The position numbers and the translations under genes were made by a program. Of a stretch of DNA of 9,698 bases, positions 2,172 to 9,698 are shown piece after piece; position 1 is the stretch's first letter; the number at the start of each line of letters is the position of its first letter. The stretch lies in the IMG/VR virus record IMGVR_UViG_2541047444_000010. One strand, given 5' to 3'. A model generated the notes under the pieces. It saw nothing but the letters and a program-made list of their open reading frames with translations. It ran no database searches and had not been told where the DNA came from. This stretch comes from a virus. Its lineage: Duplodnaviria; Heunggongvirae; Uroviricota; Caudoviricetes.

Positions 2172-4151
2172 TCAGGCCACCGACGAACGCACCAGCCCGC
2201 GCCAGTCAAGTGGTGCCACTCCGGCATCAATACGGATTTTTGTGGCAATGCCGTCAGTGGTGAAACCTTCCTGCTGATCAATGTATGGCGTGTCCACACC
2301 ATCCAGCCAGGCCACTTCAATGGTGTCAGTGCCCTGTGCCGCCGCCAGATACCAGGTTTTCGGGTCTGCCGCATCAAGACGCGCTTCTGCAATCACCTCA
2401 GCAAAGTTCTGGATAGGGTTAATGACACCGGCGTTTGCATCCGCCCCTTTCACACTGGCCGATTTGATGGTCTGGTTCGCCACCGTCTCCAGTGCCACCG
2501 GTACCAGCATAAAGGCCGGACGGATATTCAGGGCACGATCGCCTTCTTTCTGCAGGCGCATCATCTGACGGGCCGCATCCAGTCCGGAAACGGAGATCCC
2601 CCCGGTGGCAATATTTTTGTGATCGGCATGGAACAGCGCCTTACCGTCGGACAGTTTCGGGTTATCCGTCAGCACCTTGTAGACCAGGTCACCAATCGTT
2701 GCCTTCGCCGCACGCCCCATCTTCATCGGCACGTCCACCAGCATATTCAGATCATCATTGATAATGGCCTGGCGGGTGATGGAGAAAATCTCCCCGTAAG
2801 TGGCCAGTGCAATGGTCTCCTTGCGATCTGAGGTGGTGATGTATTTATACTCCGCCCCCTCACGAACCTGGCGCAGAGAACCAAAACCGCCCATCCCCAC
2901 GCGATACGCTGTTTTGAAGTCTGACAGGCGTCCCTTACGGGTCCACTTCTGGAAGGTTTCTTCTGATTCCTCCCAGCCCTGGATCAGCCCCTTGTTCGAC
3001 ACATCCAGCAGAATATTGCCAAAATCAGAGGTGCTGTGCGTCAGCGCCAGCCCGACCATCTGCATGGGGTTATAACTGGCCACCCCAATACCGCGCTCCG
3101 TCAGTGACATGCGAGCCCATTCACGCAGGGTCATCCCGTTATAGGCGTTATCCTTCTCGACATTTTCAAATCCGGCACGGGCCAGCATCGCCTGGCGGAT
3201 CCCGTCCCCCACAAAATTGCCGTTTCCGGCATAAATATGGGCCGGTGTATTTTTGTTGGTCGGCGAGGACTCCTTGCCCATTTCATTCAGCAGACGTTCA
3301 CGGGCCATTTCCAGCGAACAGTCAGGATCAGCCACGCACTGTGCCTGAAGCGTCTGATAGCGACCGCCGAACATGGCAAACAGATGGTTAATGCCTGACA
3401 TGCGGGCTTTCTGCTCAGCCATAACGCGGGCGCGAATGGTCGCCTCATCAGACACTGCCGGTACCGGTGATGGTTCTGTTACCGCCGGTGCAGGGATTGT
3501 CACTGTGGTATCACGCGGGGCACTGTTGCGTGGCGGAGTAATCATGTTTCGGATGGATTCCGGCATCTTTTTAAATTCCTCTGTACGTTTTGACTGAATA
3601 CATGCCATTGCCTCAACAGCGGGTGTCACCTGGTCAGCAAATCCGTGTGCCAGACATTCGGCACCGGACATCCAGGTTTCATCCGCCAGCATGGCGGCAA
3701 TTTCATCGGTGGTTTTTCCGGTTTTCTGCGCATAGGCTGGCAACAGTACCGATTCGACTTTATCCAGCAAATCGGCATAACTGCGCATATCCTCAGCATC
3801 CCCGCCACTGAATCCCCATGGCTTATGGATCATCATGAAGGCATTTTCCGGCATAATGACCGTATCACCGGCCATCGCAATCACAGATGCCATCGAGGCG
3901 GCAACGCCATCCACATACACGGTAATGGTCGCCCCCTGATTTTTCAGGGCATTAAAAATGGCGATGCCTTCAAAGACATCGCCACCCGGTGAATTGATAT
4001 GGAGATTAATGTGGGTGATATCACCCAGTGCATTCAGTTCGCTGACAAACTGCTTCGCGGTAACTCCCCAGAAACCAATCTCGTCATAAATATAAATATC
4101 CGCGTCACCCGGCCCCCCAGCTTGCATCCTGAACCAGGATTTATTCTTCAT
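2172..4151 (-). CDS. Prohead protease (ClpP-like, S14 family) fused to linker/scaffold-like region and major capsid protein (HK97 fold)
   Basis: Open frame of 723 codons from 4343, but the first 200 nt overlap the portal gene out of frame. Likely start is ATG 4151 (MKNKSWFRMQAGG...), 11 nt before the portal stop, or ATG 4127. N-terminal domain has ClpP-like motifs DIYIYDEIG, INSPGGDV, GVAASMASV (catalytic Ser context) and MMIHKPWG (catalytic His context). Then a Pro/Thr/Ala-rich linker, then about 370 aa with the look of an HK97-type major capsid protein ending ...IRIDAGVAPLDWRGLVRSSVA. Confidence 0.85.
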   Translation of the reverse strand: MKNKSWFRMQAGGPGDADIYIYDEIGFWGVTAKQFVSELNALGDITHINLHINSPGGDVFEGIAIFNALKNQGATITVYVDGVAASMASVIAMAGDTVIMPENAFMMIHKPWGFSGGDAEDMRSYADLLDKVESVLLPAYAQKTGKTTDEIAAMLADETWMSGAECLAHGFADQVTPAVEAMACIQSKRTEEFKKMPESIRNMITPPRNSAPRDTTVTIPAPAVTEPSPVPAVSDEATIRARVMAEQKARMSGINHLFAMFGGRYQTLQAQCVADPDCSLEMARERLLNEMGKESSPTNKNTPAHIYAGNGNFVGDGIRQAMLARAGFENVEKDNAYNGMTLREWARMSLTERGIGVASYNPMQMVGLALTHSTSDFGNILLDVSNKGLIQGWEESEETFQKWTRKGRLSDFKTAYRVGMGGFGSLRQVREGAEYKYITTSDRKETIALATYGEIFSITRQAIINDDLNMLVDVPMKMGRAAKATIGDLVYKVLTDNPKLSDGKALFHADHKNIATGGISVSGLDAARQMMRLQKEGDRALNIRPAFMLVPVALETVANQTIKSASVKGADANAGVINPIQNFAEVIAEARLDAADPKTWYLAAAQGTDTIEVAWLDGVDTPYIDQQEGFTTDGIATKIRIDAGVAPLDWRGLVRSSVA

Positions 4152-5643
4152 GCTGGCTTTCGGTGTCGCGCTGATACTGTCGTTCAGTTCCGGCACTGTT
4201 GCCTCCTTTGTCGTTGACGGGGTCAGTATCAAAGACCAGCCCCAGTCTGCTGTTTTCATCAATTTCAGCCTTGCGGCGACGTTTGACCTCATCCGGATTG
4301 CGCCCACCGGCACGCACCCAGTCAGATTCTGTCGCTGCACCACCCCGGATCTGAATTCTCCAGGCTTCAGCTTCCTTAACCGGGTCGATCCACGGCATCA
4401 CCGGACCGGAATACGTCGCGTTATATAGCGTTTTCATCTCCACATCCGCCGGAATTTTCAGCAGACCTGCCGCAACCACCATATTCAGCCATGTCCGGTA
4501 CACCGGGCGGGTTACCGCGCCAATAAAACAGTCCTGCAGGATCAGGTAACCATCCGTGGACTCGACCAGCTCCTGCCGCTGGGCGCTGTAGGTGCCGTTA
4601 TAGTTACGCGCCGCACTGGAAAAACTCAGACGACTGCCTGCTGCCACTGCACGCAACTGGCCGTTGCGGAAAGTTTCAAGGTTGGGATTGGGACGGTCAG
4701 ATTTGACCATGCCGATATCCTCGCCCTTGCGCAAATCGTCATAAATAATACCCGGGGTGATATGGACTTCCCGCTCGGTCTCTTTGATCCCCGGATCTTC
4801 ATAGTCCTGTCCGTCACCTTTACGGATATACAGTCCCAGCGCCGCAGCAATACGCGCCGCTGTCAGTTCCGCATCCTCATACTCCTTAAGGGCACTGATC
4901 CGCATCAGCACCCCCGATAACATGGATGAGCCTCGCGTCTGATGCAGACGACGAGTGAACTTCAGGTGGATCATTTTTCCGGCAGCGATTTCTTTCGTAT
5001 CACTCTGCCGGCCGCTGACCGGATAATTTTTATAAACCAGATATTTTTTCGGTCTTCCCCACTCATCAAGAAAAACCCCCTGATTCAGTCCGGCGGATTC
5101 ATCAGTGCGCATGGGAACAAAATCCGGCTCCATCGCCTCAAGCCAGAATGGCACTCCCGCCGTCCGTTCCAGACCGTTTCCCGCACCACTGACCATCTGC
5201 GCAAACACTTCACCATCCCGCAGCCAGGTCCGCAGCAGTAAACGTTCAAGCACAGGACGGGTATACTGCCCTGTCACATCCGGACTCACGGACCATTCAG
5301 CCCACAAACGGCGGATATCCGCAGCCAGCTCAGCCGCCATTTCCCCGTTTTTTCGTAATGGCTGAGGCTCCACAATAATTCCCCTGGCACCAATCACCCG
5401 CTCTTCCAGCTTGTCAAACACACCAATCACCAGGTCATGATTGATATCCAGAAAACGGGCCTGCTCCCGCAGGGAAACCGCACCGTATTTACTGAGCTGA
5501 TCAGCAGAGCGATTTTCCCGCCGGGCTTTATGTGTCCGGGTCGGTTTCACCGCCTCATAGGCCATGATTAACGCCCTTGAACGCAGTCTGGCTGCTTTCC
5601 ACCCGGGGGAAAACACGCCGATCACATCATCAATAATTGCCAT
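4141..5643 (-). CDS. Portal protein (lambda gpB-like family)
   Basis: 500-aa ORF directly downstream of the gpW-like gene, with a one-base TAATG stop/start overlap at 5641-5645. Position and size fit a portal. The segment SFSSAARNYNGTYSAQRQELVESTDGYL resembles the recalled lambda gpB region LSRNYAQMSYSTARAS; the rest is divergent. Confidence 0.82.
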   Translation of the reverse strand: MAIIDDVIGVFSPGWKAARLRSRALIMAYEAVKPTRTHKARRENRSADQLSKYGAVSLREQARFLDINHDLVIGVFDKLEERVIGARGIIVEPQPLRKNGEMAAELAADIRRLWAEWSVSPDVTGQYTRPVLERLLLRTWLRDGEVFAQMVSGAGNGLERTAGVPFWLEAMEPDFVPMRTDESAGLNQGVFLDEWGRPKKYLVYKNYPVSGRQSDTKEIAAGKMIHLKFTRRLHQTRGSSMLSGVLMRISALKEYEDAELTAARIAAALGLYIRKGDGQDYEDPGIKETEREVHITPGIIYDDLRKGEDIGMVKSDRPNPNLETFRNGQLRAVAAGSRLSFSSAARNYNGTYSAQRQELVESTDGYLILQDCFIGAVTRPVYRTWLNMVVAAGLLKIPADVEMKTLYNATYSGPVMPWIDPVKEAEAWRIQIRGGAATESDWVRAGGRNPDEVKRRRKAEIDENSRLGLVFDTDPVNDKGGNSAGTERQYQRDTESQHEE

Positions 5644-5879: not shown

Positions 5880-7975
5880 GGATTATCTTCCGCACGCTCC
5901 GTCCGCAGTTTTTTCTTCCGGCGACGGCGTTTTTCTGCCCCGGCCGTCAGTTCCGGGGATACCGTTTCACCAGAACGCTCCTGCGGGAAGACGAGCCACG
6001 TTTCCCGCTGTGCCCAGTCCGGTGCGGAGGGCCAGCGGATCTTTTCGTAACCATGCAGAACGGCAAGCGCATCCGCATAAACCAGCAGGTCAAACGCTTC
6101 GTTAGCGCCCCTGCCCGGTTTTCGCCATTTTCCGTCACTGCCGCGCTCTTCATAGGTCAGCTCATCGTAAAACCACCGCCCCAGCCAGTCGGGAAAGTGG
6201 ATATAGTTCGGCCCTGGTGTGTCACGCCACAGGGCATTATTTACACGATCCTTAAACGCATCCGTCTGAACCAGCCACAGCGCGACATCGCCACTGGCTC
6301 TGGCACGGCGGGCACTTCTGCCGGTATTATCCGGGAAGGTTCGGTTAATCAGCCTGTCACGGCGAAGTCCATCCCCCTTGAACAGAAACACCCTGTTGCC
6401 CAGTCCGTCACTCCGGCAACGACGCCAGAAACGATAGGCGTTATCTGTCACCCCGGCTTCCCCTCCCGTATCCACCGCCATGGCCATCAGACGCATGCGC
6501 ACATCCGGATCAGAAGCCAGCGGCCATGTTTTATGGAACACATCCGTCAGCAACAAATCCCAGTCCTCCGGATATGCCGCCGGATCAACCGGCAGACTTT
6601 CACCGTTGGGACTGCAGCGCAGTGAATGCCGGATGTTGTAGCGATCAACAATCCAGCGTTCCCCCTGCTCTCCGTATCCGGTGATCTGCACAACAAAACG
6701 GCGATTTTTACCGCCCTGTACGTCAACCGTTGCCTCAATAAAACGCACACCATCCGGCACAGATCGCCGGGGAAACGGCTCGGCACGCTGTTCAAGCAGT
6801 TCACTTTTACGCTGTTCCGTGGCTGAACGGGGCAGATAGGGTCGTCCGATATCGGTGTTCACCACCGCTTTCAGGGTCTCTTCACTGCCGGTTCGCTCAT
6901 ACTCTTCTTCTGCCGCCAGCAGTTTAAAAATCAGTTGTTCCCAGGTCTGAAACGCCGCAGCTGGCCCCTCCATCCAAAATGACGCAATCCGGGAGTTTCG
7001 TGGCGTTCCGGTGATACTGCCGTCCGCCGCCGCCCGTTCACCTTCACGAAGCCAGATCCCCTGGTTATTCAGTTCGCGTTTCTGCTCAGGGGCAATCAGC
7101 CCGCGACAATGCGGACACATCAGACGGGCAGCCTGACCGGCAGCCACAAAATCCGGGTTATTCCGGTATCCGGTCATGTTATCCATCACCGGCTGAAAAT
7201 ATTCCCCGCAGTGCGGACACGGCCAGTACCACCGGCGGCGGTCTCCCCGGTTATACAGTGACAGGATCCCCGTTGTTGGCGGTGCCTCATGTGCGCCACC
7301 ACAACGCCATTTGGTATCGGTGATATCCCGCCCCGGTGAACTCTCGACCAGGGTCATCCCCGAGGACATAAAGGTGGTGGTACGCTTTGAGGCCAGCGTG
7401 AAGGCATCCCCTTCCCCGTCCACATTTTCAGGGAAACGGTCATAATCCGTCAGCGCCACACGACGGTAATCCGAAGAGGAAAAGACGGTGATCGACGGCC
7501 AGCCAATCTTCAGGAAGGAGCCGTCAAGAAACATTTTATCGTGGACGTTGTTGTCATTACGGGAAGGACTGAGGCGCTTGCTGACCTCCGGACTGTGGCG
7601 AAACGTCCTGGAAAGACGCGTTCTGGAATGCTCACGCGCCTTCGTCTCAGTCATCTGCACCACCAGCATATCCGCCGGATCACAGATGATGCCGTACACA
7701 ATCCAGCCATCAATCAGCCCTTCGGTTTTCCCGGTTCGCGCAGGTCCCACAAACACCACCGCGTCATATTCACGGGCTGATAATGTATTAATGGGGTCAA
7801 TCATATAGGGCGTCAGCGATGACTCCCACGGACCGGAAGTATTGGCTCCCCGTGGAACCCGCATATAACGCCTGATGGCTTCCGCTACTGGTAACCGGCT
7901 GGGTGGGCGAAACAGCGAGGCCACTTCGCGCCAGATATCGGATGCGCGGCTATGGCTCTCGTTCACCTGATTCAC
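5852..7975 (-). CDS. A: Terminase large subunit (GpA family)
   Basis: 707-aa ORF. SLFRPP near the N-terminus, a P-loop-like VVFVGPARTGKTEG, and the zinc-ribbon-like WPCPHCGEYFQP paralleling lambda gpA ACPHCGEEQ. The start overlaps the Nu1-like stop as ATGA at 7972-7975. Confidence 0.92.
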   Translation of the reverse strand: MNQVNESHSRASDIWREVASLFRPPSRLPVAEAIRRYMRVPRGANTSGPWESSLTPYMIDPINTLSAREYDAVVFVGPARTGKTEGLIDGWIVYGIICDPADMLVVQMTETKAREHSRTRLSRTFRHSPEVSKRLSPSRNDNNVHDKMFLDGSFLKIGWPSITVFSSSDYRRVALTDYDRFPENVDGEGDAFTLASKRTTTFMSSGMTLVESSPGRDITDTKWRCGGAHEAPPTTGILSLYNRGDRRRWYWPCPHCGEYFQPVMDNMTGYRNNPDFVAAGQAARLMCPHCRGLIAPEQKRELNNQGIWLREGERAAADGSITGTPRNSRIASFWMEGPAAAFQTWEQLIFKLLAAEEEYERTGSEETLKAVVNTDIGRPYLPRSATEQRKSELLEQRAEPFPRRSVPDGVRFIEATVDVQGGKNRRFVVQITGYGEQGERWIVDRYNIRHSLRCSPNGESLPVDPAAYPEDWDLLLTDVFHKTWPLASDPDVRMRLMAMAVDTGGEAGVTDNAYRFWRRCRSDGLGNRVFLFKGDGLRRDRLINRTFPDNTGRSARRARASGDVALWLVQTDAFKDRVNNALWRDTPGPNYIHFPDWLGRWFYDELTYEERGSDGKWRKPGRGANEAFDLLVYADALAVLHGYEKIRWPSAPDWAQRETWLVFPQERSGETVSPELTAGAEKRRRRKKKLRTERAEDNPWITSGGWL

Positions 7976-8448
7976 ATATCGGCCTCATCACAACAGTCAA
8001 TGACTGCCTTTTCCAGTGTGTCGCGGATCTCATCAACCACAATCTGTACTTCATTCAGTTGTGATGCAGTCCACCCCCTGTCCCTCTCCAGCCGGTCAGG
8101 CCAGGTTTCCAGTACCTGAACTATCGCTTTCACCACGACAGAAAAGGACCGCCTGACATCACTGACTGGCACAAGCTGAACAGTTTCATGCTGAAATTTA
8201 AGACGCTCGCGCTCGGACTGATACCATGCCTTACGAGCGTGAGGATCCATATCCTCATCTTCGGAAGATGGTGGTTTTTCCAGCAACGAAGTTATCAAAT
8301 CCGTCAGGAGATACAGTTTTTTCTTTTCATTACTGCCTGGTGCAAGAGGAACATCCGCCATTCTGGCGGCAACAGTCTGCCGGTGCAGACCTGAAAGGGC
8401 TGCCAGTTGATTAATATTTAACTTCATATTTTTCAGCTCGCCGTCCAT
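7972..8448 (-). CDS. nu1: Terminase small subunit (Nu1-like, N-terminal HTH)
   Basis: 158-aa ORF with ATG at 8448 and a GGAGGG SD 6 nt upstream. The segment MKLNINQLAALSGLHRQTVAARMADVP is a helix-turn-helix resembling the recalled lambda Nu1 N-terminus MEVNKKQLADIFGASIRTIQNWQEQGMP. Lies about 190 bp downstream of the candidate cos site, as in lambda. An internal ATG at 8427 is a possible alternative start. Confidence 0.8.
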   Translation of the reverse strand: MDGELKNMKLNINQLAALSGLHRQTVAARMADVPLAPGSNEKKKLYLLTDLITSLLEKPPSSEDEDMDPHARKAWYQSERERLKFQHETVQLVPVSDVRRSFSVVVKAIVQVLETWPDRLERDRGWTASQLNEVQIVVDEIRDTLEKAVIDCCDEADM

Positions 8449-8629
8449 TTACATCCCTCCACATAAACCGCAGAACAGAAGTGACTCTGTTTTTTTGTAA
8501 AGAAATGCCGCCATATAAAGATGTCGAACAAAAAACAACCACAATCATCATCTTTTTAATACTAACAGCATTAAAAACAACAAGTTACCATCATGATGAT
8601 GATGACGATAAAATCACAAAAATGCGCCT

Positions 8630-8660
8630 TTTTCCGCGCCCGCCCGCCCCGTGTTCAGGC
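8630..8660 (-). other. Candidate cos site (cosN-like G/C-rich core) of the packaging region
   Basis: Read on the minus strand, the core is CACGGGGCGGGCGGGCGCGGAAAAAGGCGC. This resembles the recalled lambda left end ACG|GGGCGGCGACCTCGCGGGTTTTCGC in composition and layout, and sits the same distance upstream of the Nu1-like start. The exact nick positions cannot be set from sequence alone. Confidence 0.45.
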
Positions 8661-8909
8661 CCACCCCACCAGGAGGACCCGCAAAAATGATAATGGTTAT
8701 CATTTGCAACAAAATCCAGTTTCTTCCACCATCGCACCGGACTGGCGACTATGAGGGGACAACACCGCGCTCCGTTAACGCGGTAAACCCCGGTGTGTAT
8801 CGTTTTTGATTATCCCCGCACACTCGCGCAGAGGATTCTCCCGGTCGGGCTGCGGTCTCTGTTAATGCAGGAATACGGCGACAATACCGCGCATGAATAA
8901 TAAGGTCGC

Positions 8910-9134
8910 TCAACACACTGGCTGTAATGCAGCGGATACCATGCGGCATTTAGCGGCATTCATCGTACACTCAACGGTTAGCTCTTCATTCGTGGCATTC
9001 ACCTGAAAGGTCCTGGAGTGTAATTGCGTACATTTACCACTGAACGAACCTTCAACAAGAACACGACCACGCTGCAAAATACGGAACGGAATTGTTCCCT
9101 GAAAAGGCTTTACGGTTACCAATAATTTCTTCAT
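8910..9134 (-). CDS. Hypothetical small protein (74 aa, five Cys), unassigned; accessory position between Rz/Rz1 and cos
   Basis: ATG at 9134 with a GGAG SD about 5 nt upstream, 23 nt after the Rz stop (the ORF track extends it to a TTG at 9152). Protein MKKLLVTVKPFQGTIPFRILQRGRVLVEGSFSGKCTQLHSRTFQVNATNEELTVECTMNAAKCRMVSAALQPVC. I recognise no family, and it has no clear signal peptide. Coding status is not proven. Confidence 0.45.
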   Translation of the reverse strand: MKKLLVTVKPFQGTIPFRILQRGRVLVEGSFSGKCTQLHSRTFQVNATNEELTVECTMNAAKCRMVSAALQPVC

Positions 9135-9157
9135 GCATTCTCCGAATAACAAAAATA

Positions 9158-9625
9158 CTAGTTAATACACTGAGTGCGGATATATTCCTGAAGCATTCTC
9201 AATGCTGCCTGGTCGCTGATGATTCCGTCTCTGATACCGAGAACGTTTCGTCCAGCAACCGGAGAGAGTTCGACGGCGGCATCATTGCCCACGCCGGAGG
9301 TGCCGGTGGCTTCACGCACGGTACCGGGGCAGGTGGCGTTGATCCGCAGGCGCTTACGACCAGCGGCAACATCAGCACGCAGAGTTTCATTTTCAGCTCT
9401 CGCATCGGCTAATTCCCTCGAGTATTTTGCATCGAGCGCAGCAACATCACGCTGGCGCACCTGCATGTCAGTAATGGTGGCATTCGCCTGTTCCAGCTCT
9501 CTGGCTTTTTTATCGCGCTGCGCTTTGTAGGTGAGCGCGTTGTCACGGTAATGGTTTGTTGCCAGCCACAGCGCACCATAGCCAACCGCCAGGACAATAA
9601 TCACCACACACAGAACACGGTTCAT
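9158..9625 (-). CDS. Rz: Rz i-spanin (inner-membrane spanin)
   Basis: 155-aa ORF with an N-terminal transmembrane segment [18 protein letters not shown] followed by [45 protein letters not shown], which closely matches recalled lambda Rz. The start ATG overlaps the upstream stop as ATGA. Confidence 0.9.
9199..9405 (-). CDS. Rz1: Rz1 o-spanin (outer-membrane lipoprotein), embedded in the +1 frame of Rz
   Basis: 68-aa ORF wholly inside Rz in another frame. [20 protein letters not shown] has a lipoprotein signal with a VSAC lipobox, followed by a Pro-rich segment [10 protein letters not shown]. Closely parallels recalled lambda Rz1 (MLKLKMMLCVMMLPLVVVGC...CVKPPPPPAW). Confidence 0.82.
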
Positions 9626-9698
9626 CTCTCTTTCACCCCACCAGTCCCGATAACGTCAGGACTCGCCAGGCGGTGGAAAAGAAAATGGCAACCAGCAT
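9622..9698 (-). CDS. 3' end of upstream lysis gene (probably endolysin), partial
   Basis: An open frame enters from the window end and stops at TGA 9624..9622, overlapping the Rz ATG as ATGA; the visible tail is ...[17 protein letters not shown]. Only about 24 codons are visible, and a second frame is also open to 9633, so both frame and identity are uncertain. The endolysin call rests on the lambda gene order S-R-Rz. Confidence 0.3.

Follow-up and report, generated by a model that had tools for sequence, protein, structure and literature searches.

An open reading frame (ORF) of 74 codons, ORF74, was analysed in a 9,698-nucleotide stretch of Caudoviricetes DNA (IMG/VR record IMGVR_UViG_2541047444_000010, hereafter the window), where it lies between the Rz spanin gene and the gene for the small terminase subunit. 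ORF74 is a genuine protein-coding gene, beyond a chance ORF, and very probably a real, dispensable accessory gene of the late operon. It is optional lambdoid cargo from a catalogued but uncharacterised family, and as such an ordinary kind of gene. The preferred reading, that it encodes a late-expressed, dispensable and soluble binding protein with a possible function in counter-defence, is given a probability of about 0.4 as a whole statement. A conserved hairpin element located immediately downstream may be a more surprising feature than ORF74 itself.

Coding evidence, family and predicted fold of ORF74

ORF74 starts with ATG at 9134-9132 and ends with TGA at 8912-8910 on the minus strand. 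A preliminary description of this DNA had reported a good Shine-Dalgarno sequence and ATG and a start 23 nt after Rz on the same strand, and these statements were confirmed: GGAG is located at 9143-9140, five bases before the ATG, and the Rz stop at 9158 is separated from the ATG at 9134 by a 23-nt gap. The GGAG is also kept in the diverged copy of Stx2_EH1846, which shares about 82% nucleotide identity with ORF74 (40 differences in 222 nt). The reading frame, whose conservation in related phages had been proposed as a check, was maintained in 66 homologues obtained by protein database search, down to 56% identity; nearly all of them are 68-79 amino acids (aa) long, and their N-termini are all MKK, MKQ or MKR. 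Further stand-alone relatives of 70-81 aa with 26-40% identity were obtained by a profile search of 1.8 billion representatives. Pairwise ratios of nonsynonymous to synonymous substitution (dN/dS, Nei-Gojobori) among seven copies from Escherichia coli (E. coli) and Salmonella were 0.20-0.58, with synonymous sites saturated in distant pairs and the ratio below 0.6 wherever dS could be estimated. The shortness of ORF74 and its missing annotation in some phage records would fit an ORF that arose by chance in the untranslated 3′ part of the lysis mRNA, but that explanation is close to refuted by the frame kept to 26% identity in distant relatives, by the dN/dS values, by the GGAG of the diverged copy and by a confident predicted fold (see below). 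The earlier assignment of ORF74 as a gene in an accessory slot, here delimited by Rz and the terminase, is supported.

Residues 1-73 of ORF74 matched phrog_2571 (E 2.8e-28, 99.9 bits) at positions 100-172 of a 291-position profile. This family, to which no function is assigned, was the sole PHROG match below E 0.1. The earlier statement that the protein could be placed in no family thus holds for Pfam (E ≤ 1) and for NCBIfam and PADLOC (each at E ≤ 10), in which zero families matched, and fails for PHROG. The profile has 291 positions because the family includes proteins of about 280 aa that carry the domain in the middle, whereas ORF74 consists of the bare domain. Long forms are represented by P0075 and by the 286-aa protein of phage PhiR46_1 (domain at residues 101-168), and the distant relatives P0069 and P0079 hit the same positions of PHROG 2571 (about 100-170). 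The extra parts of the longer domain-bearing proteins contained no Pfam domain except for a sub-threshold match to Phage_Tail_Tip, and no relative of the 286-aa form was found in the PDB by sequence. The 602-aa P0074, a candidate family fusion that is a cystatin-repeat protein, was treated as a false positive, as were the 2764-aa P0088 and the repetitive P0100. A DUF1737 fusion (P0002), known from a single contig of 1477 nt, was treated as an artefact.

Named relatives were assigned to Escherichia, Salmonella, Yersinia and Xenorhabdus (prophages). ORF74 DNA was detected at 1630 places in 1244 of 5426 complete E. coli genomes (23%), with up to six places per genome, and the annotation under it was "hypothetical protein" in every match listed; 493 records were at least 99% identical to ORF74 of the window. 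It was also found in 26 phage records, mostly of Shiga toxin (Stx)-converting phages. No publication on ORF74 was found in a literature search.

The protein lacks a hydrophobic segment (maximum Kyte-Doolittle value over 15 residues, 0.8) and therefore has neither a signal peptide nor a membrane helix, in agreement with the preliminary description as regards the signal peptide. The five cysteines counted there were reduced to four (positions 35, 56, 63 and 74), a fifth being obtained only with an alternative TTG start at 9152. Within the E. coli/Salmonella clade C35 is invariant, C56 is nearly so and the other cysteines are variable; in the wide family no cysteine is conserved, so the cysteine content is a detail of the clade without value as a functional clue. 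Conserved residues are concentrated in the first 56 (F11, G13, F17, L20, Q21, G23, F31, G33, K34, R41 and V45), the C-terminal third is variable, and only G33-K34, F17, Q21, V45 and A68 hold in the wide-family alignment.

AlphaFold2 modelling with a 23-sequence alignment gave seven strands and one short helix with a mean predicted local distance difference test score (pLDDT) of 90 and a predicted template modelling score (pTM) of 0.76. On this model the fold class would be a small beta sandwich, for which no specific relative can be named. Foldseek searches of the model against the PDB and viral models returned no significant match; the top PDB rows were lectins with E 0.28 or worse. Only a resemblance, at 6-15% sequence identity and without a significant Foldseek E, was seen to small beta-sandwich binding modules (CBM35/6/36, lectin PA-IIL, a lambda J domain and PBSX XepA). 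Positions 33-66 of the family profile also gave weak matches to alphaB-crystallin, one of the small heat-shock proteins with an alpha-crystallin domain. For ORF74, neither the sequence nor the fold comparisons revealed a link to a characterised protein.

Position and mobility of the family in late operons

The late operon of the window is arranged on the minus strand in the order Rz (with Rz1 inside), ORF74, small terminase, large terminase and a portal-sized ORF, and the approximately 460 nt between ORF74 and the small terminase gene contain no convincing ORF. The slot was compared across related prophages, as had been proposed earlier for recognising variable cargo, and ORF74 behaved as such. 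In VT1-Sakai, ORF74 is lacking between a closely similar Rz 3′ end and the downstream block shared with the window; within 10 nt of its Rz stop, VT1-Sakai continues with the sequence found after ORF74 in the window (L026 2491-2501 versus window 8895-9158). The junctions with and without ORF74 share just a short CAGTG microhomology. ORF74 also deviates in GC content (45.3%, versus 55.1% for Rz and 57.4% for the large terminase gene TerL). It thus resembles a moron in its presence and absence between similar phages and in its base composition, while its own promoter and terminator were not recovered: a consensus scan of the minus strand from 8300 to 9698, which is crude and gives weak evidence, detected no promoter-like site, and the sole terminator-like site is a hairpin on the minus strand at 9083-9098, inside the ORF, in a number of such sites within chance expectation. 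This hairpin is formed by GGAACAATTCCGTTCC then GTATTTTG (codons 13-20), encodes the conserved GTIPFRILQ and is also found in a diverged ORF74 copy. An RNA gene in the ORF74 region was rejected since Rfam gave no match and the internal hairpin is at chance level. An overlapping ORF at 8749-8949 was likewise rejected as a gene, being not conserved and located in a region without codon periodicity.

In its slot, variable presence and deviating base composition, ORF74 is comparable to lambda bor/iss and other morons located between Rz and cos. A function in lysogenic conversion or superinfection exclusion, exerted from the resting prophage as by bor in the same slot, would accord with this and with the GC content below that of the neighbouring genes, as in classical morons, and with maintenance in 23% of E. 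coli genomes in up to 6 copies each. It is nevertheless decidedly unlikely. Bor/Iss is an annotated lipoprotein encoded on the opposite strand, and it has its own promoter, whereas ORF74 shares the strand of the late genes and is tightly coupled to the one before it, with no promoter-like site in the weak scan and a lone terminator-like site inside the ORF. The N-terminus of ORF74, MKKLLVTVKPFQG, has no hydrophobic core and its first cysteine is at position 35; neither a signal peptide nor a lipobox of the Bor/Iss kind is present.

At all loci long enough to be read, the family member belongs to the Q-dependent late region of a temperate phage and occupies one of three kinds of slot. The first lies after the spanins and before the terminase, following lambda-type Rz/Rz1 in E. 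coli and Salmonella and a candidate DUF2570/LysC spanin pair in Yersinia; in mEp237 an annotated Rz-like spanin is followed by the family member gp60. The second lies between antiterminator Q and the holin, beside a GrlR-like gene (L028 and L034) or beside higBA (L039-L042). Tail-region slots form the third, beside a Lom-like gene in L020 and at the end of the structural operon in L032/L033. The family start codon overlaps the preceding stop codon (ATGA) at several loci, including the Rz stop in some phages, which suggests a promoterless cassette dropped into the operon. ORF74 follows the Rz side of the mosaic and the packaging side varies: an identical protein is encoded in PPyecE_EH1910 and ASU11, phages with HK97-type terminases plus HNH genes, and diverged copies co-occur with Nu1, DUF1441, Terminase_4 and Terminase_2 small-terminase modules.

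These contexts bear on two further explanations. According to one, ORF74 is an accessory that attaches to the capsid or tail, or that binds surface sugars after release by lysis. Every readable context is indeed a late, structural-gene operon, some relatives adjoin a Lom-like gene or glucosyltransferase genes, one lies between gpI-like and gpJ-like tail genes, and lectins occupy the top PDB rows of the Foldseek search at the E values given above. The viral structure library, on the other hand, yielded no significant match, and ORF74 is missing from a phage whose DNA on the terminase side is the same and is present with unrelated terminase types; it therefore cannot fit one particular virion, and a virion-associated or glycan-binding protein is quite unlikely. 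The relative among the tail genes is that of phage SaltyDalty (L024 3119-3385; hidden Markov model E 3.7e-12), whose start overlaps the stop of the upstream gene; its neighbours, one read as gpI-like and a 1058-aa gene read as gpJ-like, are both annotated "tail protein".

According to the other, ORF74 tunes lysis timing or spanin action. The position directly after Rz/Rz1 or the mEp237 spanin, and shortly after the DUF2570/LysC pair in Yersinia, would agree with such a function, as would the overlap of the start with the Rz stop. This explanation is weakened to a similarly low probability as the lysogenic one by VT1-Sakai, which does without ORF74 despite its closely similar Rz 3′ end, and by family members that precede the holin or lie within the tail region. 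Known regulators of lysis (antiholins) are membrane proteins, and neither a membrane helix or other hydrophobic segment nor a lipoprotein signal was found in ORF74.

A second, conserved gene of 68-73 aa, B, comes 46-98 nt after the family member (A) in about 10 of about 18 lineages; it belongs to phrog_4280 (no assigned function) and has the consensus MFVA.GLKADPDN.GWVLGWAVVR..PWHLVGVYATK...YGSH.LGSDDF. B was found in L004-8, L015-23, L030, L032-33 and L039-42; it has no Pfam match above threshold and no relative by sequence in the PDB, and it occurs alone in Pseudomonas phages. Between lineages B is 53-97% identical where A is only about 30% identical, so A is the faster-evolving member. B is absent from the whole clade of Stx phages and from the window, where tblastn with three B proteins gave nothing better than E 0.28. 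The presence of B after A in about half of the lineages, the N-terminally cut B of L006-L008 and the missing B of the window could indicate that the window copy is the remnant half of a two-gene unit and drifts toward loss. This is highly unlikely, as the E. coli clade without B is still under purifying selection (dN/dS 0.20-0.31) and is the most abundant, with the 493 nearly identical records mentioned above, and as the start codon and Shine-Dalgarno sequence are intact.

A different gene follows A in L012-L014 and L031, a single lineage; it is Acb2_Tad1_hairpin-like (phrog_717). In L012/L013 it is located just before the Nu1 terminase gene. L031 encodes a 225-aa protein that carries the family domain as a C-terminal fusion and whose N-terminal part resembles the 204-aa upstream gene of L012.

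Table 1. Coordinates of the genes and elements at the ORF74 locus and of genes neighbouring other family members
Feature	Sequence	Positions	Strand	Description
ORF74	window	8910-9134	minus	74 codons; 74 aa, 8.2 kDa, pI 9.7; PHROG 2571; predicted soluble all-beta sandwich
Shine-Dalgarno GGAG	window	9140-9143	minus	five bases 5′ of ORF74 ATG
Rz i-spanin gene	window	9158-9625	minus	PF03245 E 1.5e-39; phrog_13
Rz1 o-spanin gene	window	9199-9405	minus	embedded in Rz; PF06085 E 6.9e-21
Structured element, predicted 28-bp imperfect hairpin	window	8776-8895	minus	conserved block reaches 8712; 3′ border of cargo slot
GC run GGGGCGGGCGGGCGCGG (minus-strand reading)	window	8634-8650		possible cosN region, by analogy only
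Small terminase subunit gene, DUF1441 type	window	7972-8448	minus	PF07278 E 3.8e-48; phrog_141; 3′ limit of slot
Partner gene B	L004	4265-4471		
Partner gene B	L016	5341-5559		
Partner gene B	L023	3806-4027		mEp237 gp61
Acb2_Tad1_hairpin-like gene	L012	5314-5598		directly downstream of family gene
Acb2_Tad1_hairpin-like gene	L031	863-1147		directly downstream of family gene

Some 190-200 nt of AT-rich DNA separate the GC run from the start of the small-terminase gene downstream of it. This arrangement resembles the cosN/cosB/Nu1 layout of lambda, and the assignment as cos is inferred only from this likeness. On the upstream side of the run, similarity to the phages with HK97 terminases ends at a distance of about 40-60 nt, near 8695-8710. 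Downstream of the portal-sized ORF (4141-5643), a 723-aa ORF on the minus strand (2172-4343) is a candidate protease-capsid fusion, judged from sequence alone, and occupies what is taken to be the region where lambda has C, Nu3, D and E.

The conserved hairpin element downstream of ORF74

A block of 184 nt (8712-8895), which starts 15 nt after the ORF74 stop, is 95.6-98% identical across phages that differ in their packaging modules and in the presence of ORF74. It was detected in 4152 of 5426 complete E. coli genomes (77%) at 10,835 places, up to 11 per genome, compared with the 1630 places of the adjacent ORF74, and in 398 phage records including lambda-like, 933W/VT2-Sakai-like and BP-4795 phages. 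No feature was annotated under the block in all but one of the matches listed. At all loci with readable lysis genes the element is positioned 3′ of these genes and of any first cargo (bor/iss, DUF6979 or ORF74) and 5′ of any second cargo and the terminase. Phage PhiR46_1 (L025) carries two copies, at 3441-3616 and 5221-5402, which bracket the gene for the 286-aa domain-bearing protein and a 149-aa gene; this arrangement suggests that the element marks or anchors the exchange of cargo.

The element showed no conserved ORF and no codon periodicity, and no Rfam match was obtained at E ≤ 1. A 28-pair imperfect hairpin was predicted by RNAalifold in its first 105 nt, and since many of the pairs are G-U, the predicted hairpin is specific to the late-sense strand. 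In an alignment of 19 copies, 97.8% of the cells pair, versus 27-65% when the partners were slid, and the covariation score of these copies was higher than in all 500 shuffles. A diverged element was found in Yersinia prophages by a covariance model built from the alignment (L016 5718-5819, 41.9 bits); when it was added, compensatory changes appeared in 15 of the 28 pairs, in an alignment that is fitted to the model and in which most double changes come from one sequence. The fold of a single sequence is no more stable than those of shuffled sequences (z -0.28). A 16-nt direct repeat with 88% identity is present within the element at 8755-8770 and 8877-8892, 122 nt apart, one copy being at the 5′ end of the element and the other after a second small hairpin.

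Two described kinds of prophage small RNA (sRNA) were considered as possible counterparts. The svsR sRNA is located at the 3′ end of cI (PMC12803456), and the Pas sRNAs map to structural operons or to the vicinity of Q/holin and have a much lower prevalence than the element (bioRxiv 10.64898/2026.05.13.724894). Neither appears to match, both being set apart by location, and Pas by prevalence as well, and not by sequence. The element may be an sRNA, may serve as a processing site of the late transcript, for example for RNase III, or may anchor the recombination by which cargo is exchanged.

Proposed role of ORF74 and its significance

The preferred reading, a late-expressed soluble binding protein that is dispensable and possibly active in counter-defence, can be put in more detail. 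ORF74 would have no promoter of its own, and its product would appear only in the lytic cycle, through read-through of the late transcript that depends on Q. Being small, soluble and of the size of a single domain, the protein would bind a host or phage macromolecule or a small ligand in the cytoplasm late in infection, and it would be neither an enzyme nor a structural component of the lysis or packaging machinery. Among possible roles, counter-defence or host takeover appears the most likely, in which the protein would shield late infection from a system of the host or of a rival prophage. This role is preferred because the gene is optional, moves between accessory slots, outpaces its partner B in evolution and in one lineage lies beside a sponge-like gene. 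Host-modulating and anti-defence roles, suggested in the preliminary description, are a reasonable conjecture to which this neighbour gives the only hint. The Acb2/Tad1 sponge proteins are, like ORF74, small and stand-alone and are encoded in accessory slots.

Several points weigh against this reading. PADLOC, Pfam and the PDB sequence and fold searches showed no similarity of ORF74 to known anti-defence proteins, whether Acb2, Tad1 or others with solved structures; ORF74 is all-beta and has no match to PF24729. The Acb2-like neighbour was seen in one lineage only. Lambdoid counter-defence genes that have been characterised are mostly early genes. As the promoter scan was crude, ORF74 may be expressed in the lysogen, and the window copy, which has no B, could be the decaying half of a two-gene unit. 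Taken by itself, a counter-defence or binding role of ORF74 is possible but doubtful. A broader proposal, that PHROG 2571, alone or with B (PHROG 4280), represents an undescribed class of late counter-defence or host-takeover genes moving as a promoterless cassette, with exchange between Rz and the terminase anchored by the bordering hairpin element, is unlikely.

About one in four complete E. coli genomes carries ORF74, among them those of O157:H7, O26, O145, ST131 and enteropathogenic strains, as do many Shiga-toxin phages. A confident predicted fold, the partner gene B and a natural knockout pair (VT1-Sakai and its ORF74-carrying relatives) are now available as handles on its function. Among the conserved sequences of E. 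coli prophages that lack annotation, the hairpin element is one of the most widespread. If ORF74 does protect late infection or alter the host, it would have a bearing on the spread of Stx phages.
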